Part shown: positions 41,925 to 53,096 of the stretch, in pieces
Layout: the number at the start of each line of letters is the position of its first letter
Position numbering within the stretch: position 1 is the first letter of the stretch
Source of the DNA: Escherichia phage StefiGeyer_Bas88
DNA length: 64,000 nucleotides
Sequence record: PQ850628.1
Reading direction: 5' to 3' (one strand)
Notes under the pieces: model-generated
Database searches by the model: none
Seen by the model: the letters and a program-made list of their open reading frames with translations, nothing else
What the model was told of the DNA's origin: nothing
Made by a program: the position numbers and the translations under genes

Positions 41925-42134
41925 TTACTTAACCTCAATAATCCCAAGTTTCCAAACATATCCGGGAGAAGAGTCCTGAACAGCTCCGTATTGAAGAACA
42001 ACATCACAAGCATCACTACCCATACCATCTAGCATCAGCTGACCACGAGTAGGACGGTCTTTGTAATAAGTTGCTTTTACTTCTGTGTCGTGAGTCCATT
42101 CACTAAAGCATAGACTTAATTTGTAGATTCTCAT
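41925..42134 (-). CDS. hypothetical protein
   Basis: 69-aa ORF. Confidence 0.35.
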   Translation of the reverse strand: MRIYKLSLCFSEWTHDTEVKATYYKDRPTRGQLMLDGMGSDACDVVLQYGAVQDSSPGYVWKLGIIEVK

Positions 42135-42610
42135 TCCAAAACCCTTTCTTCTAAATCATAAAAGATTTGATTTGTCCCATTATTCTCAACAAGCACTGTA
42201 CCATTATCTAACAGAGTAGCAACTTGTGAATAAGGAATGTTCTTTAACATCAGAGCGTTGATGGTTGGCTTATTTTTGAAGTAAGCGACCGGTTCAACAT
42301 AGAAGGAAATCCCACGACTCCCTTTGATTGGGGTACTCGAAGATAAAACCCAAATCGTTTCTGGCTTGTCTATTTCCTTTTCAACACCAACCTCAACAAG
42401 TGAGTCAGCAGCGAAACCTACAGGACGACTAGAAGAGCCAAGTGCCCGAATAAATCCTGGCAATTTTGACATGTTAGACCAACTACCAGTGTTTTCATTA
42501 AACACAGGTCTTACGTCTCCATATGCCCAAACCAGATTATCATAGTCACGGGCTATGTATTTAACCCAATCAGGAACATCATACTCCCTTCCTTCAAAAA
42601 TAGCTTTCAT
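42131..42610 (-). CDS. hypothetical protein
   Basis: 159-aa ORF, ATGA-type overlap with the downstream gene. Confidence 0.45.
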   Translation of the reverse strand: MKAIFEGREYDVPDWVKYIARDYDNLVWAYGDVRPVFNENTGSWSNMSKLPGFIRALGSSSRPVGFAADSLVEVGVEKEIDKPETIWVLSSSTPIKGSRGISFYVEPVAYFKNKPTINALMLKNIPYSQVATLLDNGTVLVENNGTNQIFYDLEERVLE

Positions 42611-42841
42611 TTAGATAACCTTGTGCTTATAGATGTTAGGGTTGTAGTAATGCAACCAGTTTATGTATTGTTTCTGTTCGAGGTAGTGCCTGCAATCATG
42701 ACAAAAAGCATGACCCAAACCTGTTTCCTCATTCAGTTTGAAATTGATAAGAAGCTTCTGCTTTCGACAGAAGCTACATGCTTTAGTGGGCTTCACGTAA
42801 TGCATCCCAAGAGATTGGATATATTTTACGAAGCTCTTCAT
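42611..42841 (-). CDS. Cys/His-rich putative zinc-binding protein
   Basis: CSFCRKQ...HAFCHDCRH; track start 42919 overlaps thyX, so an internal Met (42841 or 42805) is more likely. Confidence 0.35.
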   Translation of the reverse strand: MKSFVKYIQSLGMHYVKPTKACSFCRKQKLLINFKLNEETGLGHAFCHDCRHYLEQKQYINWLHYYNPNIYKHKVI

Positions 42842-43433
42842 CAATTGTTGATGCGAACACTCGTACTTCGTACTGAGCATGGTCTGACAGTCGCTGACGA
42901 CACAACTCTGACCAACCATATAGAGAACCAGTCCATACCCACTCAGTGATCATACCCTGAGGTAATACGAATCGAGCTTGTTCTGGAGCAATGAACTTAA
43001 TCAATTCATCGTACGACTCAAGAGCTGTTTCATATGCTCGGTTAATCAGAACTAGTGCAGAGTTTTGTGCTCCTGTGGTGAGGAGATTCCCTGCACCTGC
43101 ATGGAGGTCCGAAGGTCTTTCAAAAATCTCTTTAGGGATGAAGAGTTCAACTGCTCCATCTTTATACCGCCGGGACATTTCGTTCCACGAGAATCCAACT
43201 TGATGCTTGCCCAACTGTCTCGCAATTGCGATTGGCGCTTTGCATCGGAAGCTAATTGTCGGATGACGGAATGGTGTGACATGCTTTTCTCTGGCAAGGA
43301 ACTTGATAAGGCGTTCATCTCGTTCATTTAACTCTCCTTCACGAGTAACCCCAAAGGAAACTCGAGCTGCATTAACAACAGATTTATCAGAACCCATTGC
43401 TTCGATTAGTGTTGCTTGTAATTGTTCATTCAT
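42783..43433 (-). CDS. thyX: flavin-dependent thymidylate synthase ThyX-like
   Basis: DKSVVNAARVSFGV, KAPIAIARQ and LSDHAQYEV resemble ThyX; the canonical RHR-x7-S signature reads KHQVGFSWNEMS. Confidence 0.7.
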   Translation of the reverse strand: MNEQLQATLIEAMGSDKSVVNAARVSFGVTREGELNERDERLIKFLAREKHVTPFRHPTISFRCKAPIAIARQLGKHQVGFSWNEMSRRYKDGAVELFIPKEIFERPSDLHAGAGNLLTTGAQNSALVLINRAYETALESYDELIKFIAPEQARFVLPQGMITEWVWTGSLYGWSELCRQRLSDHAQYEVRVFASTIDEELRKIYPISWDALREAH

Positions 43434-43447
43434 CCTTGAACTCTTCC

Positions 43448-43663
43448 TTAATAATGAATCTTTTTATAAATCATGTTGCTTCCACTTTCTGTTTCAATCC
43501 CTTTCTGAATTGTAATCTTAGAAGCGCCAGTGTTAGCAATTTTTAAAGCTCGCTTAAAGCGGCGAGCCTCTCTCCGTGTTGTATATGAGGAGAAACTAGG
43601 GATTGTGCTATCAAAATTAAACCACTTAACTGCCCAAAAAGTAATCCAAGGTTTCTTTTCCAT
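43448..43663 (-). CDS. small protein, K(V/I)HY-tail paralog family member
   Basis: 71 aa; shares W.V.(V/I)(K/R)W, TR.EAR..KK and C-terminal K(I/V)HY with 45528-45734 and 45734-45946. Confidence 0.4.
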   Translation of the reverse strand: MEKKPWITFWAVKWFNFDSTIPSFSSYTTRREARRFKRALKIANTGASKITIQKGIETESGSNMIYKKIHY

Positions 43664-43664
43664 A

Positions 43665-43940
43665 TTAAATACCTTTCAGAGCCGTGTCTAAAAATGCACG
43701 GAGATTAGATTCAGTTTGCATACCTGATAAGCTGTAATGAGCACCACTGTTCTTATCAGGGATGACAAAGGCTGGGATACTGCGAACACCATATTCAATG
43801 GCTCGCTCTCGACCATCACCTTCAGAGATATTTACTTCTTCAACTTCTACACTGTAGTCAGCCACAACCTTCTTAAACACAGGAGCCATAGCTGCACACG
43901 GAGCACATGAATTACTATAAAACTTAATTACTTTACTCAT
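43665..43940 (-). CDS. thioredoxin/glutaredoxin-like protein
   Basis: ATG at 43940; CxxC active site in KFYSNSCAPCAAMAPVF. Confidence 0.6.
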   Translation of the reverse strand: MSKVIKFYSNSCAPCAAMAPVFKKVVADYSVEVEEVNISEGDGRERAIEYGVRSIPAFVIPDKNSGAHYSLSGMQTESNLRAFLDTALKGI

Positions 43941-43941
43941 T

Positions 43942-44118
43942 CTATTCCTTGTTAATAAACAGGTTGATATGACGCTGGGTAGCAGGAACAACAATAAAAG
44001 ATTTATACTGACCTTTTGCTAAGTCATGAGCAATCTTCTTTGTCTGACCAAGACCCATCACACAGCCACTAACGATAATGGCATGTGCTTGTAATTCTTC
44101 AGGTAGGTTTAGTTTCAC
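43942..44118 (-). CDS. hypothetical small protein (58 aa, GTG start)
   Basis: GTG at 44118 preceded by AAGGAA; stop one nt before the thioredoxin ATG; fills gap between annotated ORFs. Confidence 0.3.
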   Translation of the reverse strand: MKLNLPEELQAHAIIVSGCVMGLGQTKKIAHDLAKGQYKSFIVVPATQRHINLFINKE

Positions 44119-44130
44119 TCTTTAGATTCC

Positions 44131-44316
44131 TTATAGCATACAAAGAATAATAACAAGAGGTAGTGTTATAGCAAAATGTACCAGAACAACACTACCTAGC
44201 TTGATAGCTTTAACATCCTCTTCTGCTGGGTTTTCTTTAATTGCTAAATTTCGAGCTTTATATATAACAGTACCAACTATTAACGACCACACGGCCCACA
44301 CAATCAGTGAAATCAT
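44131..44316 (-). CDS. small membrane protein (paralog 1)
   Basis: 61 aa, two hydrophobic helices; shares ENP...K.IK.GS..LV.F with 44326-44547. Confidence 0.4.
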   Translation of the reverse strand: MISLIVWAVWSLIVGTVIYKARNLAIKENPAEEDVKAIKLGSVVLVHFAITLPLVIILCML

Positions 44317-44325
44317 ATCAAACCC

Positions 44326-44547
44326 TTATGCAGTCAACAGGTGGAGAAGGAAAGGAATGACAACAGAGAAAATTACCAGAGCAATGCTGCCATGTTTAAT
44401 GGGTTTAGCATCATTCGGATTTTCTTTAAGCATCTGTTTCTGAGCCAGATAAACGATACCACCAACAAGAATTGCCCACACAGACCATACGATTGCTGAA
44501 AACATATTCACATCCTTATAAAGAAGTTCGCCCCACCTCTTAAACAA
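44326..44547 (-). CDS. small membrane protein (paralog 2)
   Basis: 73 aa, two hydrophobic helices, same motif as 44131-44316. Confidence 0.4.
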   Translation of the reverse strand: MFKRWGELLYKDVNMFSAIVWSVWAILVGGIVYLAQKQMLKENPNDAKPIKHGSIALVIFSVVIPFLLHLLTA

Positions 44548-44568
44548 AGAGACAGGGCGGAGGTTTGA

Positions 44569-45135
44569 TTAGTAAGACACGTCACCACTAGAGTGGGACA
44601 TGTTGCTCTTGACGAAGTAACAGAACTTGCCAAGACCTTCATTAATTTCTTGAAGCATACTCTGGTCTACTGGATAGGTGCACAAGTCTGAATCAAACTC
44701 GTCCATCTTTTCAATGATACACATCAGAGTCATGCACATGTCGGAAAGCATACCGTCCATGTCGAGATCAGCACTACCTTCTCTGAACCAAGCACAACTA
44801 AGATAGCTACTAGCTGTTGCATCCACTTTGATACAGTGATAACGCATTCGCTCAGCTACTCGGTCTCCTGTTTCACGAGCATAGTCTTCTAATTCATCGA
44901 ACATACCATGAACACCTTGGAAACCAGCTCCAGAGACGTTCCAGTGGTAATTCTTTGCTTTGATGTGTAGAAGCTCAAGGTTAGCCTGCACACCGCATAG
45001 GATGTGCTCTAGACTGTTACCGCTGATCAGTTTATTCATTCCCTCAAGACGAGAGATAGAGGAGTCAGTTGTAGAGAATGGGTTACTAGAACCCACTCGT
45101 GTTAGTTCAGGTAAGTCGAAGACATTATTATGCAT
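44569..45135 (-). CDS. Dps/ferritin-like protein
   Basis: ANLELLHIKAKNYHWNVSGAGFQGVHGMFDELEDYARETGDRVAERM matches the Dps pattern (N.HWNV.G..F...H..F.E.Y). Confidence 0.5.
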   Translation of the reverse strand: MHNNVFDLPELTRVGSSNPFSTTDSSISRLEGMNKLISGNSLEHILCGVQANLELLHIKAKNYHWNVSGAGFQGVHGMFDELEDYARETGDRVAERMRYHCIKVDATASSYLSCAWFREGSADLDMDGMLSDMCMTLMCIIEKMDEFDSDLCTYPVDQSMLQEINEGLGKFCYFVKSNMSHSSGDVSY

Positions 45136-45475
45136 TAGGAGTCTCTCCTTCTAAGTTAGTTGAATTAGCCACATTACGAGCAATGTTATCCATGACCTGC
45201 TGTGTAATAACAATGCAATTCTGAGGGTCTACTGATTTAGAACGCCCCATTTCAGGGTCATAGACTTTGACTCGCTTGGCTGTTGAGCCAGTAACTTGCA
45301 ACACTTTGAGAAGATAACCTTGATTTCCAATAGACCATGCAACAACATCACGATTCTTGATATAACGACCAAGCATATCACGATGATAGAACTGCTGCAT
45401 AACTTTAGCTTTGCTAATCTCTTCAGATGGCGGGGCCACTTTACTCAAATCTAACATAACTCTCTCCTGTTTCAT
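45128..45475 (-). CDS. hypothetical protein
   Basis: 115-aa ORF. Confidence 0.4.
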   Translation of the reverse strand: MKQERVMLDLSKVAPPSEEISKAKVMQQFYHRDMLGRYIKNRDVVAWSIGNQGYLLKVLQVTGSTAKRVKVYDPEMGRSKSVDPQNCIVITQQVMDNIARNVANSTNLEGETPNA

Positions 45476-45527
45476 ACAATATTCTTATACTGTATATACA
45501 TTTGAGAGTTATCATATCTACTACCAA

Positions 45528-45734
45528 CTAGTAATGAACCTTGCTAGTCAAGGATCCTGCACTGTTATTGTCACTTTGAAACCAACGATGAATCTCTACT
45601 TTTTCAGCGAGACCTAAAGCTTTTGTAGCTTTCTTAGCAAGACGAGCTTCTTGTCGAGTGTCGAATAATTTAAGACAATCACCACCAAGGTCTTTGTTAG
45701 CCCATTTAACGCGAACTGCCCATAATTTAGTCAT
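45528..45734 (-). CDS. small protein, K(V/I)HY-tail paralog family member
   Basis: 68 aa; WAVRVKW...TRQEARLAKKA...SKVHY. Confidence 0.4.
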   Translation of the reverse strand: MTKLWAVRVKWANKDLGGDCLKLFDTRQEARLAKKATKALGLAEKVEIHRWFQSDNNSAGSLTSKVHY

Positions 45735-45946
45735 TAGTAATGTACCTTTCCACTGATATAGAAACGACCTGATTTAAAGTCTTGAGCTTTGTGAATAGTG
45801 ACCTTATCAATTGTACTTTCACAGCTTAATAAGAATTTCTTATGAGCGCGAGCCTCTTGACGAGTATTCCTGATGCCCATTGATTCCGTACCACTACTCC
45901 AGCGGATACGAACGACCCAACGTCTTTTCATTGTTCCAAACTCCAT
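45734..45946 (-). CDS. small protein, K(V/I)HY-tail paralog family member
   Basis: 70 aa; WVVRIRW...TRQEARAHKKF...GKVHY. Confidence 0.4.
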   Translation of the reverse strand: MEFGTMKRRWVVRIRWSSGTESMGIRNTRQEARAHKKFLLSCESTIDKVTIHKAQDFKSGRFYISGKVHY

Positions 45947-46146
45947 TATCTGTCAACCGATTCAGGGACAAACTGCATTACACATACCTGATTACGAGGG
46001 AGATTTATTTCACAAGCAGCTTTTCTATCAGCAACCTTTGCTGATGAGTTAGGGCCTATTTGAGCCATCATTATTCCCATAGCAAACATGCCGATGATTA
46101 TGCCAATTGATAGAGATGCTACGGTTTCTTGTTTCATCTTAATCAC
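45946..46146 (-). CDS. small membrane protein
   Basis: 66 aa with hydrophobic segment SLSIGIIIGMFAMGIMMA. Confidence 0.35.
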   Translation of the reverse strand: MIKMKQETVASLSIGIIIGMFAMGIMMAQIGPNSSAKVADRKAACEINLPRNQVCVMQFVPESVDR

Positions 46147-46676
46147 ACCCCTTTAGATGCAACTACACTATTGCTACCATTGTAGCGACCCTTCACTGCA
46201 TATGAATCGTCGCCAGCGTGAGAGTGTTCAAACATAACCATCTGACCAACACGCATTCCAGCACGAACTCGTAAGCTGTGATTGTGGGTAACATTATGGA
46301 ACTCAAAGGTCAGCTTACTGTTGTTAAACCCTGCATCAGCCCAACCAGCATGGAGATGGTTTAAACCACAACGAGCCATTGAGGAGCGGAGTACAAACAG
46401 ACTTGAAATATTATCTGGAAGGTTAAACTCTTCCATTGAGTGAGCTAAGAAGAACTGTCCCGGAGTGATAACGATACCATCTTCAGGGATTTTTACTTCT
46501 TTCCACTTGAGGTTTTCTTTAGCATCAATGTCAACAATACCATCAGCCTGCTCTTCAACAAGGATAGTATCACCAATACGGATATCCACACTAGCAGCGT
46601 TAACATACTTATGCTCCGCATCTAAAAAGCCATTATCAATAACGCTGTGTAATTCTTGAGAACCTAAAAGACTCAT
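46143..46676 (-). CDS. dcd: dCTP deaminase
   Basis: dUTPase-fold motifs ASVDIRIGD, SSMARCGL, AGWADAGF; 177 aa. Confidence 0.75.
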   Translation of the reverse strand: MSLLGSQELHSVIDNGFLDAEHKYVNAASVDIRIGDTILVEEQADGIVDIDAKENLKWKEVKIPEDGIVITPGQFFLAHSMEEFNLPDNISSLFVLRSSMARCGLNHLHAGWADAGFNNSKLTFEFHNVTHNHSLRVRAGMRVGQMVMFEHSHAGDDSYAVKGRYNGSNSVVASKGV

Positions 46677-48109
46677 GAGTTTCTGTTTCCTTGTACAGAT
46701 GATGCCAAATTGTTAATCATATTACGAGCTGTTTCACGAGTTAGTGTAACACCTGCTAAGTTGTTATGAAGTTCACCAGAGAGTTCACGAGCAGTAGCCC
46801 GAAGCTCTTCACCAAGTGAAGTGTTAGAGTGAGCCAAACCATTACGACGACCAACAGGTCGAGGAGTTTCGTTAGCGTCATTAGCTAAAGATGCAAAACC
46901 AATACGAGCAGCTTCACGAGCGGCTATAGCTGCTACCCGATCTTCCGTAGGGGTTGGCAAATCACCAACCCCTACACGTTCAATATCACTAGCACGTAGA
47001 CCCTGAGTAACAGATCTTACTGTTTCCCATGAACGACGAGAGCGCTGCAAATCATCCATTGATGGAGAAGAAACAGGACGAGCAGTTCCTCCTGAGACAT
47101 GCCATGTATGGTTATGCATTCCAGAAGATCGTGCACTACCAAAACTACCGGTGAAAGTATCACGAGGTGCCATTGTACTAGGGGCTGCGAATCTTGCCTG
47201 TTGCCAAGAGTCACGTCTGTCAGTTCCCGGAGTCCAAGGCTGCGTAATTGCTTCAACACCAATAGTGGTTAACTCACTAGACCAATCTGTCTGTAGGTTA
47301 ACTTCTTCATCCAGATAGATACGACCCGCTTCCTGAGGAATATTTAATACAGTTTCCATCATCTTCAAGGTGTAGTGGCGACGTTGATTCTGATACAAGT
47401 TTACACCAGCCATAGGCCCAACTAAATCACTGATCAGATGAACTTCTGGTTCACCAAAAGCTCCCATTGCAAGGTGCATATACTCAGTAGAACTGCTGTA
47501 AACTGCAACTGTTGCTTCAGGCCACTTTTTGTGGACATACTTCATGTCACGACTTGTCACCACAGGGATATCATTAGTATATGCCATTGCAAACATACCT
47601 TCGTTCGACACATACATATCATCGAGAGTCATAAACCCTTGACAGATCATAGGGAAGCGACCGCTCAGAGTATCCATATCCAGAGGAAGGTTAATCATCA
47701 TCTGAATCTTCACTTCATCAATCTCAATTTCCAGAATCTCTTGGAAAGTGAAAAGTGCGTCAGCATAAGTTGTCCCACTAACAGGCTGGACTAAACGAGA
47801 TGTAACTTGAAGTCCCTTACTCTCTGTCCAAGACAAGAAGTTGTCAAGGAACAGTGCAGCATTACCCACGTTAGCAGGGCTGTTTTCCTGACGAGTGTTC
47901 CAACGAAACCCTCCTTGAACTAGGAAGATATCAACATCATTCGGAGTTCGGTTCTGGAAGAACGTATCACGGATAGCACCACCTGCAATAACAGGATAAA
48001 TACCATCAGGGACTACGTTATCTCTGATCAAATTACGAATCAGGTCAAGCCCTACGCTGAGGGCTTCTCCTTCTTGAAGGTTCAATTCAGACAATGGAAT
48101 CTTAATCAT
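46673..48109 (-). CDS. nucleotidyltransferase (CCA-adding enzyme / poly(A) polymerase-like head domain) with low-complexity C-terminal region
   Basis: AGGAIRDTFFQNRTPNDVDIFLV matches the class II tRNA nucleotidyltransferase GGAVRD...DxD motif; C-terminal 200 aa Ser/Arg/Thr-rich. Confidence 0.5.
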   Translation of the reverse strand: MIKIPLSELNLQEGEALSVGLDLIRNLIRDNVVPDGIYPVIAGGAIRDTFFQNRTPNDVDIFLVQGGFRWNTRQENSPANVGNAALFLDNFLSWTESKGLQVTSRLVQPVSGTTYADALFTFQEILEIEIDEVKIQMMINLPLDMDTLSGRFPMICQGFMTLDDMYVSNEGMFAMAYTNDIPVVTSRDMKYVHKKWPEATVAVYSSSTEYMHLAMGAFGEPEVHLISDLVGPMAGVNLYQNQRRHYTLKMMETVLNIPQEAGRIYLDEEVNLQTDWSSELTTIGVEAITQPWTPGTDRRDSWQQARFAAPSTMAPRDTFTGSFGSARSSGMHNHTWHVSGGTARPVSSPSMDDLQRSRRSWETVRSVTQGLRASDIERVGVGDLPTPTEDRVAAIAAREAARIGFASLANDANETPRPVGRRNGLAHSNTSLGEELRATARELSGELHNNLAGVTLTRETARNMINNLASSVQGNRNS

Positions 48110-48111
48110 TT

Positions 48112-48660
48112 CTACATTTTCCAGTTGAGAGATGGGGGATTCTTATAATCAAATCCAGCCATTTGGCAAAGACACATGTAAACCTTAACTGTCAAGTTAA
48201 CGTCTTGCTCACAATACGTGAACATGTCTTCAGTGAAAGCATCCCATGCTTCTTCCTGCTCACCATAATCACCCTTTAGCTCACCCAGAAATTCGCCCCA
48301 TTGCTTGAGGCCATGACCACGAGGGCCATGTCTTGGGTCGCCTTTGGGATATTCTGGATTGTCTCCAATACGGTCAGGCTTGAGATAACGACTCAGGCAA
48401 AGTGTATCGAAAACATTGAAACGGAAGGGTGTTACATGAGAGTAGAATTTAAAGAGAGCTGGTAGGTCAAAATCTATGATATTGTGTCCTACAACTACAT
48501 CAGCTTCCTTCAGTTTGTGAAGAGCTTCTTCAATTTGGTGAGGGCGATACCCCCACCGCTCTCCTGAGAGAATATCAAATATCCAGATACACCAGACATT
48601 TTGGATACCCTCATAAAGATTATCACCCTCAATATCGAAGGCGAATATTTTCTTTACCAA
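48112..48660 (-). CDS. DEDD-type 3'-5' exonuclease (probable proofreading subunit)
   Basis: Exo [10 protein letters not shown], Exo [13 protein letters not shown], Exo [11 protein letters not shown]; immediately downstream of primase-helicase. Confidence 0.7.
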
Positions 48661-50444
48661 GGTCGTGCCTCCCCGTCTTGTGTTAGAAGGGAAGCTGCAT
48701 CTTCACCATTGGTTAAGACAAACGGATTAGCTTCATCAACTTCATGATCTTCTCGTTCTACAAGACGACCTGTTTCGTTGATGTATTTGGTGTAGCAAAC
48801 ACCTGTCTGACCATAGTTACGCTCCTTAAGGAGACGTATGATTGACAAATTCTTGCCTAACCCATCTGCTTGCTTATCTCGTTCAAAACCGATGATACAC
48901 TGACACCAACGCATCAGTGAACGTGAACCAGTGAACTGAACCTCTTTCACCTGTCCACCTTCTTCGTGAGGAGCACCACCTGCCGGAGCATTCAAGTGAG
49001 ATAATACAAAAGCAGTGAAGTCTAATTCCTTACACATACCAGCAAGCTCTGAGGCAATCTTACTGATTTCTGTATTCACTTCAGAAGGAGTTAGGTGAGA
49101 TACCAATGCAGTGATGTTATCAAGAATGATAAACTTACATTGATTCTCAACTACCCAAAAGCGAATACACTGCTTAATATCATCCCACTCATTCTGACCG
49201 AAGTTATCATACAAGAAGAATTTATCAGCATAACGAAGTGCTTCATCACGTAGCTGAGATTCCTCATATTCAACATCAGGTCGGTGGAAAGGTACAGATG
49301 CTGACTTACCTGCAATGTTTTTAACAGACATGCCTACCTTCTCTTCCAAGAAGAAGCCACCACCATTAAACCCATGTTCAAGGCAAAGCCATGCTACCAG
49401 TTCGTGTGCTATCAGGGTTTTACCTGAACCAACACCACCACCGATTGCAACCATCTCTCCCCAACGAATGCCGAAGGTCATTTCATTCAGAGTTTTCCAC
49501 GGATAAGGAATACCCCACTCTGCTTTCTTCAGAGCATCTTCTAAACAATCAAAGACAGTAACAGCACCAGCAGGTGATTCCCGCTTCGCTGAATACTTCA
49601 GATTGTTGAATAACTCTTGACCTCGACCAGCGAGTAACATGTCATTTGCATCTTTGATTTCCTTCTCTTGACCATTGTAAGCGAAGGTTCCTTTCGGAAT
49701 ACGAGCAAATTTAACATGGGGATATAATGCACGACCTTTAGTTAATGCAATCTCACCTGCATCATCATTATCCATGCAGAGCACAATCTCCTCAAAACCA
49801 TTCAAGAAGTCACGGTTACGTGAGAGAACGGAAGAGATTGAACCTGCACCAAACGGTAGAGATACACACGCAGGTTTGATGTTTGTAGCGTTCGTGAACG
49901 CAGTGAGCACATGGAAGCCAGACATACAAGAGAGTGGGTCTTCAAAGATGAAGAGTTTCTTGTTGTACACGTCACCACGTTGTGCTTGAGCCATACCGAA
50001 TAGGTCAGCTTCTTTAACACTGCCGATGTAATAGAATTTCTTGCTGTCTAGAAGCTTAACTTCATAGCCAACAATGTTTCCATCACGTTCACGAGGGAAG
50101 AAGTAACTATCAGGAGTTTGCCCATCTGTCTGACTCAAACCGATACGACATTCATATCGTTCAGAGACAGCTTTAGGAATCAAACGACGAGTAAGCTCAC
50201 CCTGAGGTAGCTCTAAGCAATCGTCTAAGATCTCTCGGAGTTCTTCAGGGGATAGTTCTTTCTTCTCATTCGGTGTAGGAGTTGTTCCCTTTTCGAAAAC
50301 TTCATAACTACCACAGCGATTACAACTGCCCCACTCTTCACCGGACTCTTCATTTCGGAAGAGAATCATGTGATTGTGGGTCTTATCACGACCATGAGAG
50401 ATACATTCTTTACAACCTGTATCCCCTAAAATGATCTTTGACAT
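48654..50444 (-). CDS. DNA primase-helicase (T7 gp4-like)
   Basis: N-terminal zinc finger CKEC...CNRCGS, TOPRIM-like MDNDDAG, Walker [10 protein letters not shown], Walker B FIILDNI. Confidence 0.85.
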
Positions 50445-50480
50445 GCTCTATCCTCCTTGGAATTCCTTGAGCAGACTTCT

Positions 50481-50687
50481 TCAATAAAACGAACGTATTT
50501 CTTCCCACACATCATCTTGAAGATTTTTAAAACCCTGTAAAGCTGATTGGGTTCTCATGATAAAGTCTTCAGAATGTTTATTGCGGTCAAGCATACTGAC
50601 AAACTTGTCATAGCGGTTAATCTTCCACCGTAACTTTAAGTAGTCAGACTCGAGCTTTCTCAGCTTCTGTCGCTCAGTTACTGTCAT
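50481..50687 (-). CDS. hypothetical protein
   Basis: Start taken as internal ATG at 50687 (track start 50786 overlaps the upstream gene by about 110 nt). Confidence 0.35.
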   Translation of the reverse strand: MTVTERQKLRKLESDYLKLRWKINRYDKFVSMLDRNKHSEDFIMRTQSALQGFKNLQDDVWEEIRSFY

Positions 50688-51105
50688 CCTGATCACCTGC
50701 CAGATACGCTGTCCAGTCGCCAGATTCAACCAAAACATCTTGTTCTTCGTCGATATGATAAATCCATGCTTCCACAGTCTCGCCATTATCCAGCACCACT
50801 GGAATCAGTGTACGATTGTAGAAAGTGTATGGATTGTCTTTACCACGATAACCTTCCAGACCGTCATACGGACCTTCCAGACCAGCTTGGGTTGTTTCAA
50901 AGACTTCTACACGAACAGGCTTGCCATTGCTGTCATGCACCAGAGATACACTTGGGAAGTATGCTGTGCAATACTGATACAGGTTACAGTTGTTCACTGT
51001 CCAACCTTCACCAATAGACACACCACCTGCACGAGCATTGATAGCGTGGTTGTGTTGACCTTTACGAAGAGAACCATACGTTGCAACTAATACTTTATCA
51101 GACAT
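50674..51105 (-). CDS. gamma-glutamyl cyclotransferase-like (AIG2/GGACT fold) protein
   Basis: N-terminal YGSL motif (VLVATYGSLRKG), about 143 aa, downstream acidic residues consistent with GGCT-like fold. Confidence 0.55.
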   Translation of the reverse strand: MSDKVLVATYGSLRKGQHNHAINARAGGVSIGEGWTVNNCNLYQYCTAYFPSVSLVHDSNGKPVRVEVFETTQAGLEGPYDGLEGYRGKDNPYTFYNRTLIPVVLDNGETVEAWIYHIDEEQDVLVESGDWTAYLAGDQDDSN

Positions 51106-51140
51106 TATATTACCTTTTGTGTTTCAGTTAAATTCGAACT

Positions 51141-51162
51141 AGCCTCCTCTTTCGAAGAGGCT
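51141..51162 (-). other. stable RNA hairpin with GNRA tetraloop, no U-tract
   Basis: Minus-strand RNA AGCCUCUUC-GAAA-GAGGAGGCU (9-bp stem, one G-U) in the intergenic gap between 51171-51356 and the GGCT-like gene. Confidence 0.35.
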
Positions 51163-51170
51163 AAAGCAAA

Positions 51171-51356
51171 TTATTCTACTTCGAAGTGTTTGATCACACC
51201 AGTCAATACATCAGATTGGAACGTACCTACTAACTCTGCGCCTCGGAAGAAATTGACATTTGTTCCAAGTGTTTCAAAGCGTTCTGCTTGAATGTCCAGA
51301 GATTGAATATTCCCTTCTGAGTTTACTGTACGAAACATGATTGTGTATTTATTCAC
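51171..51356 (-). CDS. hypothetical protein
   Basis: 61-aa ORF, ATGA coupling with the upstream gene. Confidence 0.35.
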   Translation of the reverse strand: MNKYTIMFRTVNSEGNIQSLDIQAERFETLGTNVNFFRGAELVGTFQSDVLTGVIKHFEVE

Positions 51357-51595
51357 AGAGTTGTTACTCCCTTATCTTCTTGTGCAATTGCGATGATACG
51401 CTCAACACATTCCATTGAATATTTATCACCTCGTTTAAGGAAGGTGACAATTGCAGAGAACTGATTACCAATCATTCTCTTGTTTGTGATTCCAAACTCT
51501 TCACAGAGTTGGTTAATAGCTTTACGAGAACCAACAATCAGAGGTTCTTTTTGTTCGGTCATTCCACGACTGATCAAATCTTCGATAGACAACAT
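51353..51595 (-). CDS. hypothetical protein
   Basis: 80-aa ORF. Confidence 0.4.
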   Translation of the reverse strand: MLSIEDLISRGMTEQKEPLIVGSRKAINQLCEEFGITNKRMIGNQFSAIVTFLKRGDKYSMECVERIIAIAQEDKGVTTL

Positions 51596-51615
51596 TACAA
51601 ATTCCTTTTGTTTAA

Positions 51616-52863
51616 TTACAGAGTTACTGCTACTTCACTACCTTCAACAGTTACAGACTCTAACTTACGAGGGTTGTGGACTTGTTGCGGATGAACCGGA
51701 ACGTTCCAGCCACTGCGGTAGAAGTTACGACCATCGCAGAACAGAATGACATTGGCAGACATTGCATTAGGTTGCAGGTTGTTATGAACATGACGAATAT
51801 CTGCAATCCAGTAACCACGAGACAACACATAACCAGTAGGTGCATTACGGATTGTCTGAGTATTCATCTGACCTTCCAGTTGCATTTCTTCAGGAACTAC
51901 ATCCACTGAATCAACCGGCTGTGCGACTTGGCCTTCCAGTGCGAAGTTTTCATCATCAGCACTTTCACTGTCAGCAACCAATTCACCATCTCCATCTTCA
52001 ATTGGAGCTTCAACAGGTGTTGCATAAACCACTTTATACTGAGGAGTATAGAGAGGGTTTTGAGCTTTAACAAACTCAAGGATATTGTGACGGTAGATAT
52101 CCAGAGTTGTGCCAGTTAGGCCCGGTGCTGTATTAACTTCCAGTACCCATGCTTCTTGACCTTTGGTGATGATATCAACTGCACCGAAATCTAGACCCAT
52201 TGATTCAACAGCTTTCACTGCGTTGATCAGAGAGGCATCGTTCGGAACGTCTGTGAAGGAACTTGAGTAAACCCAACCAGTGTGATGGTTACGAACATCT
52301 TCACGATAGTTAGGGTCTTCACGATAACCGTTACGACGAATCTTTTTCTGAACATAGGTGATAGCACCTTTGAACACATGGACACGCCATTCACGACGTG
52401 GGCCTAGAATACCTTTGGTGTACAGTTCAGCTTGACCAACTGAATCACGAGGCTCTACAACAATGATACCTGAACCAGAGTGACCAGTCAGTTCATGACG
52501 TTCATACACAATGTTGCCAGAGTTTGACCACTCCTGAGCAGTTGATTGAACATCTGTATACTCAACAGTTTTAACACCTGCTTGGTCCATTACACTGAAA
52601 GCGCGACGTTTGTTCGCTGCCATATGTAAGGCTGCGGTACGGTTAAGAACAGTTGCAGAACCAAAGAAGGATTCAGGATAGCGACGGTTCCCGTAGTTCA
52701 CAACCACATCACCCTCACGAGAACGCCAGCGACTGTTCTCTGAAAGAAGACCCATTACGTTAGCGTTGATACGTTCATCACGGATAGTATCGTTAATGGC
52801 AGTTACCAGAGCGTTAACAGAATCAGAAGGGCCATACGGAAGAACACGGATACGAGTAGTCAT
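51616..52863 (-). CDS. ATP-grasp family ligase with C-terminal extension
   Basis: RimK/glutathione-synthetase-like core incl. AWVLEVNTAPGL; about 150-aa acidic C-terminal extension. Confidence 0.6.
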   Translation of the reverse strand: MTTRIRVLPYGPSDSVNALVTAINDTIRDERINANVMGLLSENSRWRSREGDVVVNYGNRRYPESFFGSATVLNRTAALHMAANKRRAFSVMDQAGVKTVEYTDVQSTAQEWSNSGNIVYERHELTGHSGSGIIVVEPRDSVGQAELYTKGILGPRREWRVHVFKGAITYVQKKIRRNGYREDPNYREDVRNHHTGWVYSSSFTDVPNDASLINAVKAVESMGLDFGAVDIITKGQEAWVLEVNTAPGLTGTTLDIYRHNILEFVKAQNPLYTPQYKVVYATPVEAPIEDGDGELVADSESADDENFALEGQVAQPVDSVDVVPEEMQLEGQMNTQTIRNAPTGYVLSRGYWIADIRHVHNNLQPNAMSANVILFCDGRNFYRSGWNVPVHPQQVHNPRKLESVTVEGSEVAVTL

Positions 52864-52865
52864 TT

Positions 52866-53096
52866 TTAGATACCTTTTAGTTTAAGAATTTCGTTACGAC
52901 AGGATTGAATTTTAACTTCGATTTCCCAATACTTGGCGAACATCTCGTCTTCTTGGTCATCGCTTGGTGAATCAATTAGGTTAAAAGCAAACGGATACAG
53001 CTTTCGCTGCTCCGTTACCAGTTGTTGAAGTCGGAGTTGTTGATACTCCAGCATTGTCAGGTGAGGCTTAGCTCCCTTGCTTGACATGAGGCTCAA
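52866..53096 (-). CDS. hypothetical protein
   Basis: 76-aa ORF within cassette. Confidence 0.35.
   Translation of the reverse strand: MSLMSSKGAKPHLTMLEYQQLRLQQLVTEQRKLYPFAFNLIDSPSDDQEDEMFAKYWEIEVKIQSCRNEILKLKGI

Follow-up and report, generated by a model that had tools for sequence, protein, structure and literature searches.

A divergent Dps-family mini-ferritin with a complete ferroxidase site encoded in the replication module of a Kuravirus phage

We analyzed a stretch of 64,000 nucleotides from Escherichia phage StefiGeyer_Bas88 (PQ850628.1; hereafter "the window") and found that the open reading frame at 44569..45135 on the minus strand (188 aa; hereafter dps) is a genuine gene for a Dps-family mini-ferritin, carried by a Kuravirus phage. 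The assignment draws on the reading frame itself, on Pfam, PHROG, and PDB searches, on an AlphaFold2 (AF2) model compared by Foldseek, and on dN/dS. Protection against oxidative or iron damage would be the most plausible role of this protein: judging from its sequence, it is probably a dodecameric ferroxidase that would sequester iron during phage DNA replication. The gene starts with ATG and is preceded, 7 nt upstream, by a putative ribosome-binding site, GGAGAG (45143..45148, minus strand), read from the sequence and located within the 3' end of the upstream gene.

A Dps/ferritin-like protein had been proposed in the initial annotation, which named no strand, and profile searches, fold prediction, and structure comparison all bear this out at a level well above chance. 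Pfam PF00210 matched the product at 31.4 bits (cut-off 24.5 bits; E = 2.1e-7), over residues 56–99 only, and PHROG 3636 matched it at E = 5.4e-53, with residues 37–181 aligned to profile positions 3–149 of 149. In PDB, a phmmer search gave a best match of 1e-9 and returned Dps proteins exclusively down to E ~0.2, while a 21-sequence profile gave 60 matches with full-length alignments, all of them Dps or engineered Dps chimeras, led by Bacillus anthracis Dlp-2 (1JIG; E = 6.6e-19). All PDB matches at E = 0.001 or better were likewise Dps or Dps chimeras. By contrast with these family-level searches, NCBIfam Dps equivalogs (NF006975 and others) scored below their cut-offs (34.8 vs 114, 28 vs 170, and 17.8 vs 300 bits), and by these scores the phage protein is a divergent member of the family rather than an equivalog of any characterised group of cellular Dps. 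The helix pattern on which the initial annotation was based was largely recovered: in the segment KNYHWNVSGAGFQGVHGMFDELEDYARETGDRVAERMR of the product, every element is there and in the right order, but the literal spacing is slightly off after F79, where the sequence reads F-x-E-x3-Y-x8-AER and not F.E.Y...AER.

The predicted structure is that of a Dps subunit. For the AF2 monomer model, which was built from the 21-sequence alignment, pLDDT averages 81.6 overall and at least 90 per block across residues 41–180. Four helices (42–66, 72–99, 126–146, and 155–178) form a four-helix bundle, and a short BC helix (108–113) lies in the long B–C crossover loop, a Dps signature. The best 50 Foldseek matches to this model in PDB were Dps dodecamers throughout, mostly with TM-scores (target) of 0.8–0.9 and rmsd of 1.2–2.3 Å across ~140 residues. 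The 24-mer ferritins and bacterioferritins belong to the same PF00210 family and the same four-helix-bundle superfamily, but the phage Dps differs from them in its inter-subunit ligand set and its short BC helix. A fifth C-terminal helix was not found in the AF2 model, and there was no Ftn or Bfr among the significant PDB matches, which rules out a ferritin or bacterioferritin of the 24-mer type.

The set of ferroxidase ligands is complete. When aligned with E. coli Dps, codons 62–96 (44848..44952, minus strand), spanning the end of helix A and helix B, place H64, W65, H76, D80, D91, and E95 in the same columns as H51, W52, H63, D67, D78, and E82. The numbering of the E. coli Dps sequence used for this comparison is consistent with that published for the ligands. 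All six residues are kept in the window protein and are invariant among the homologues examined, i.e., 21 metagenomic sequences and those encoded by Proteus phage P59, Aeromonas phage LAh_6, and Salmonella phage SE131. The initial annotation had named a missing four-helix bundle or a lost metal site as arguments against a Dps; since the bundle is predicted and every metal-site residue is kept, neither applies. Further acidic residues that might line a ferritin-like three-fold pore for iron entry, E146, D148, D150, and D157 (C–D loop and start of helix D in the monomer model), align with the DDD region of E. coli Dps and are only partly conserved among the phage homologues. Given that a Dps ferroxidase site is divided over two subunits, the phage protein would be expected at least to dimerise.

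Compared with its cellular counterparts, the phage Dps keeps the fold and the iron site on a strongly diverged sequence. E. coli Dps (1DPS and other entries) shares the fold (Foldseek) and has identical ferroxidase residues at identical spacing, yet is only 18–22% identical depending on the alignment, and lacks the 41-residue extension carrying phage-specific motifs. The two proteins also differ in composition: E. coli Dps has a pI of 5.7, no Cys, and a Lys-rich N-terminal tail of net charge +3, whereas the phage Dps has a pI of 4.7, seven Cys, and an N-terminal tail of net charge −1. The best profile and structural matches are tail-less Gram-positive and actinobacterial Dps proteins, namely B. 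anthracis Dlp-2, S. aureus Dps (2D5K), and M. smegmatis Dps2 (2Z90); the 2D5K and MsDps2 entries follow 1JIG at profile E-values of ~1e-17 to 1e-16. These proteins superpose on the phage model with TM-scores (target) of 0.82–0.89 and rmsd of 1.2–2.3 Å at ~22–25% identity, but they have neither the FDLP/RL[DE]xM extension nor a conserved neighbor resembling phi32_68, the gene described below. Across solved Dps structures and E. coli Dps taken together, identity to the phage protein is ~18–25%.

The N-terminal extension itself (residues 1–41; 45013..45135, minus strand) is not basic. It was modeled at low pLDDT (39–56) with a short helix at residues 26–37, and it carries two motifs, MH(N)N.FDLP and, within the predicted helix, S.xRL[DE]xM, that are kept in Kuravirus-like homologues down to ~50% identity. 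As far as the aligned sequences tell, these motifs of Kuravirus-type Dps are not present in cellular Dps, a modestly new observation.

Selection on dps is strongly purifying, with pairwise dN/dS values of 0.04–0.06 against phiEco32, Bas87, and 4E8, and a value of ~0.05 rules out that dps is a decaying remnant. The 4-kb region around dps is 92–97% identical to genomes of Kuravirus (subfamily Gordonclarkvirinae), phiEco32-like prolate podophages of E. coli, and of the 135 records matching the Dps protein, 97 carry at least 80% of it, compared with 98 records matching the 4-kb region. Identity of the protein reaches 100% in phages TH34 and TH42 and is 81–96% in the other Kuravirus records. Thus, dps is found in essentially every Kuravirus genome of the collection, and also in other prolate podophages: those of Salmonella, Cronobacter, Proteus, and Aeromonas have copies at 28–42% identity, as do a few scattered phages of Synechococcus and Streptomyces.

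Cellular relatives are distant. We searched one genome each of 185,579 species for a close cellular relative and found none; the best match, at 43% identity, was on a 568-bp contig, and the rest barely exceeded helices A and B. In an exhaustive search among 1.84 billion cluster representatives, 14 alone reached E = 1e-10 or better. The phage Dps clade therewith looks phage-specific, which is modestly new. A recent capture from the host is rejected because identity to E. coli Dps is merely 18–22%.

The identification of the family is not new, because the gene had earlier been annotated as Dps in GenBank and in two papers, with the annotation in phiEco32-like coliphages going back to the sequencing of phiEco32. 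Orthologues of the window gene are phi32_67 in phiEco32 and CDS67 in SU10; together with PHROG 3636 these form one set of orthologues, 81–100% identical over ~97 Kuravirus records and in the same gene order, and the window gene is one more allele of it with no material difference. In GenBank, phi32_67 is annotated as "DNA binding protein; member of the Dps family". SU10 CDS67 was described as a DNA-binding protein with a DPS domain and counted among the few CDSs common to all five C3 phages sequenced by then (PMC4281155), and the report of a Dps-family protein in phage Privateer noted the Kuravirus homologues (PMC7881722). As a confirmation of the existing annotation of a long-annotated core gene in a well-studied genus, our Dps call matters little in itself. 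However, several GenBank Kuravirus records, e.g., those of IME267, vB_EcoP-101114UKE3, MLP3, ES17, and YW01, call the same gene "integrase". This label is an error, and one that could flag a strictly lytic Kuravirus as temperate in therapy-safety screens.

The initial annotation had placed the gene in an early region; by homology to SU10 and phiEco32, and by a middle promoter element, dps instead belongs to the middle class. In SU10, CDS25–68 were assigned to the middle class and CDS69–125 to the early class by homology to phiEco32 (PMC4281155). Promoters dependent on gp36, a phage sigma factor, have been mapped upstream of phiEco32 genes 6, 13, 26, 40, 58, and 68 (PMC8948821), with the consensus tAATGTATAtA quoted in PMC4281155. 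In the window, a match to this consensus, AAATGTATATA (45493..45503, minus strand), lies upstream of the phi32_68 orthologue, and the surrounding 35 nt do not differ between the window, phiEco32, and Bas87 and show one mismatch in 4E8. It is likely the middle promoter of the unit containing dps. An exact search for TAATGTAT gave no match near dps, the local element being the one-mismatch variant AAATGTATA, and one-mismatch matches across the window were not enriched over shuffled sequences; since the pattern count is unenriched, the promoter call rests on the conservation with the mapped phiEco32 site. A sigma-70 promoter scan of 43400–46800 identified no site immediately upstream of the phi32_68 orthologue, and counts of sigma-70 and terminator sites in this interval were at or below the shuffled expectation; the SU10 authors report a sigma-70-like site upstream of the phi32_68 counterpart in SU10.

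The stop of the upstream gene overlaps the start of dps by 8 nt, which places dps second in what reads as the first of the middle units, where early and middle genes meet. Directly after the dps stop, in a 63-nt spacer, a terminator-like scan and RNA folding identified a 13-bp stem-loop (44529..44559, minus strand; −19.5 kcal/mol, z = −2.3) followed by a weak T tract. Its stem is conserved and its loop differs in sequence in phiEco32; the structure may serve as a weak terminator, in attenuation, or in RNA stability. The genes around dps are annotated as primase/helicase, exonuclease, nucleotidyltransferase, dCTP deaminase, thioredoxin, ThyX, PhoH, and DNA polymerase, i.e., a predicted replication and nucleotide-metabolism module, and the Kuravirus order is phi32_68-like gene, dps, small genes, thioredoxin, and ThyX.

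We propose the following scheme for the favored antioxidant role. Subunits would pair such that H64, H76, and D80 of one face D91 and E95 of the other, and, by family membership, would assemble into a hollow 12-mer. This shell would oxidise Fe2+ with H2O2 or O2 and store the ferric product, and the lowered levels of free iron and peroxide would lead to less Fenton damage during replication of the phage DNA. In phages of the phiEco32 type, gp79 inhibits sigma-70 transcription of the host (PMC8948821). With this shut-off, an infected cell would be unable to induce its own dps/OxyR response, and a phage-borne dps would make sense for that reason. Since the subunit-split ferroxidase site is complete and the gene evolves under purifying selection, we argue that iron oxidation in an oligomeric shell would be the selected activity, and a strictly lytic phage with a full ferroxidase centre under such selection offers a clean system in which to examine whether phage DNA replication is limited by the control of iron and peroxide. 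Our search of the open-access literature found no phage Dps characterised by biochemistry or genetics, and given the sequence divergence, the seven Cys, and the N-terminal extension, the function could have shifted. In addition, a simple antioxidant role does not explain two observations, the conserved basic partner gene and the presence of the Privateer orthologue in CsCl-purified virions, both considered below.

One alternative keeps the iron chemistry and changes its purpose: the shell would act mainly as an iron reservoir rather than an antioxidant, supplying iron to enzymes of dNTP synthesis (host class I RNR, or the phage or host anaerobic RNR activase). Gene neighborhood is what speaks for it, as dps always lies within a nucleotide-metabolism block (dCTP deaminase, ThyX, thioredoxin), adjoins or neighbors anaerobic RNR genes in relatives (Aeromonas phage LAh_6 and 100-kb metagenome contigs), and sits immediately 5' of a small gene annotated as RNR/ATP-cone in both Proteus phage P59 and LAh_6. 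However, neighborhood within a phage replication module says little about function, annotations of the module list no iron enzyme here (window positions 42000–52900) or in close relatives, and ThyX is a flavoenzyme. Dps proteins are, moreover, generally poor iron donors compared to ferritin and bacterioferritin. On balance, we regard an iron-reservoir function as unlikely.

Another alternative concerns DNA. The databases name the family "DNA binding protein", and the initial annotation had considered DNA compaction beside protection from oxidative damage. A Dps associated with DNA or with the virion would form a shell that binds phage DNA, possibly via a basic phi32_68-like adaptor, that protects or organises this DNA, replicating or packaged, or serves as a nuclease shield, and that is partly particle-borne. 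Lys-rich tails confer DNA binding on E. coli Dps. We looked for a Lys- or Arg-rich N- or C-terminal tail in the phage Dps and 20 homologues and found none: residues 1–41 include one Lys and have a net charge of −1, the C-terminal tail is also at −1, the whole protein is at −14 (pI 4.71, seven Cys), and the N-tail charge ranges from −2 to +1 across the 20 homologues. Because the N-tail, C-tail, and whole-protein charges are all negative, we consider Lys-rich DNA-binding tails absent, and because the protein is acidic and without a basic tail, a direct coating of DNA in the manner of E. coli Dps appears unlikely. DNA compaction is thereby partly disfavoured on sequence grounds, and the database label "DNA binding" appears to be without support in the sequence and inherited from the family name.

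The evidence for association with particles comes from proteomics. The Privateer orthologue was detected by mass spectrometry in particles purified through a CsCl step and an equilibrium gradient (PMC7881722), and the SU10 orthologue, with six peptides and 35.8% coverage, in a PEG-concentrated phage preparation (PMC4281155). These peptides show that the SU10 orthologue is expressed. The SU10 sample was not CsCl-purified, though, and also contained DNA polymerase, thioredoxin, and the sigma factor, with its authors warning of a possible carry-over of non-structural proteins (PMC4281155). In the SU10 cryo-EM study, gp20–24 are assigned as the head-internal ejection proteins, and gp67 or Dps is absent from the text and supplements. 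Dps shells loaded with iron are dense and might simply band together with phage in CsCl, in which case free shells would travel with the particles. Weighing these data and the charge of the protein, we doubt that the phage Dps is DNA- or virion-associated and favor the iron-sequestering shell.

The basic gene that such an association would call upon is itself well conserved. The partner of dps (45128..45457, minus strand; 109 aa) is the phi32_68 orthologue, matching PHROG 10984 at 1e-62, and members of its family (94–117 aa) overlap or abut dps in Kuravirus, Privateervirus, Lahexavirus, and metagenomic relatives. A phi32_68-like homologue lies directly upstream of dps in Proteus phage P59 (38% identity), Aeromonas phage LAh_6 (36%), and metagenomic contigs L008, L010, and L011; the coordinates in metagenome and relative loci are 2639–2923 in L004, 2609–2962 in L005, and 5681–6001 in L010 and L011. 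At the dps locus of Salmonella phage SE131, a phi32_68 homologue was not found: ThyX is the upstream neighbor, and the gene after dps is not a homologue either. Among Kuravirus-like metagenomic relatives, partner homologues are 70–95% identical to the window protein while Dps homologues reach down to ~48%, so that the partner appears more conserved than Dps. The protein is basic (pI 8.8–9.7) and gave no match in a Pfam search. Its AF2 model, of moderate confidence (pLDDT 64), is a five-stranded small β-barrel flanked by helices, for which Foldseek returned weak generic small-β-barrel matches in PDB (Tudor/PWWP/SH3-like, E = 0.01 or worse) and uncharacterised phage proteins only in BFVD. The pairing of dps with a conserved basic upstream partner is modestly new, and the occurrence of a basic partner (pI ~9.1–9.7), predicted as a small β-barrel, directly upstream in three distant phage groups is a further point for a DNA- or virion-associated Dps.

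Extending this idea, the two genes may make up a phage-specific module of two components that would be a hallmark of prolate (C3) podophages and in which the partner would anchor the acidic Dps shell on phage DNA or on the particle during assembly. The phage-specific clade, the partner pairing, and the N-terminal motifs allow such a module but do not demonstrate it, and we rate it as quite improbable. If true, it would explain both the detections in virions by mass spectrometry and the conserved FDLP/RL[DE]xM extension, and the protein would be a DNA- or particle-associated trap for iron and peroxide, or a nuclease shield, rather than a free cytoplasmic mini-ferritin. The conserved basic partner and the reports of Dps in phage preparations make this a concrete, testable hypothesis. 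Finally, a use of the Dps fold for something else, e.g., to cleave DNA or to interfere with a pathway of host defence or stress, could be read into the divergent and apparently phage-specific clade (no close relative in the genomes of the 185,579 species), its additional conserved N-terminal motifs, and the precedent of in vitro endonuclease activity reported for a Pseudomonas aeruginosa Dps-like protein (PMC11150526), but the fully conserved ferroxidase ligands argue for iron chemistry as the selected function and nothing points directly to a nuclease or anti-defence activity, making this reading highly improbable.

Several other features were observed in the region around dps. Three basic paralogues of ~70 aa (PHROG 4939; 43448–43663, 45528–45734, and 45734–45946, all on the minus strand) all end in K[VI]HY; two of them form a tandem that closely precedes the phi32_68/dps pair, and the third is downstream beside thioredoxin. 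Immediately downstream of dps are two tandem hydrophobic, membrane-like paralogues of ~60 aa (PHROG 9296; 44326–44505 and 44131–44316, minus strand), the copy number of which varies between Kuravirus genomes, with one in phiEco32. The gene annotated as a nucleotidyltransferase (PHROG 12715; 46673–48109, minus strand; 478 aa) has a long C-terminal half rich in Ser, Arg, Thr, and Gly and without a Pfam match, and its product is shorter in phiEco32 (437 aa) and slightly longer in Bas87 (482 aa). Lastly, a Cys/His-rich ORF of 102 aa (42611–42919, minus strand) shares 137 nt, read in a different frame, with the 3' end of ThyX (42783–43433, minus strand); both genes are annotated in phage 4E8 (g061c and g062c), and Bas87 annotates a shorter version of the Cys/His-rich ORF, with an overlap of only 14 nt with ThyX.
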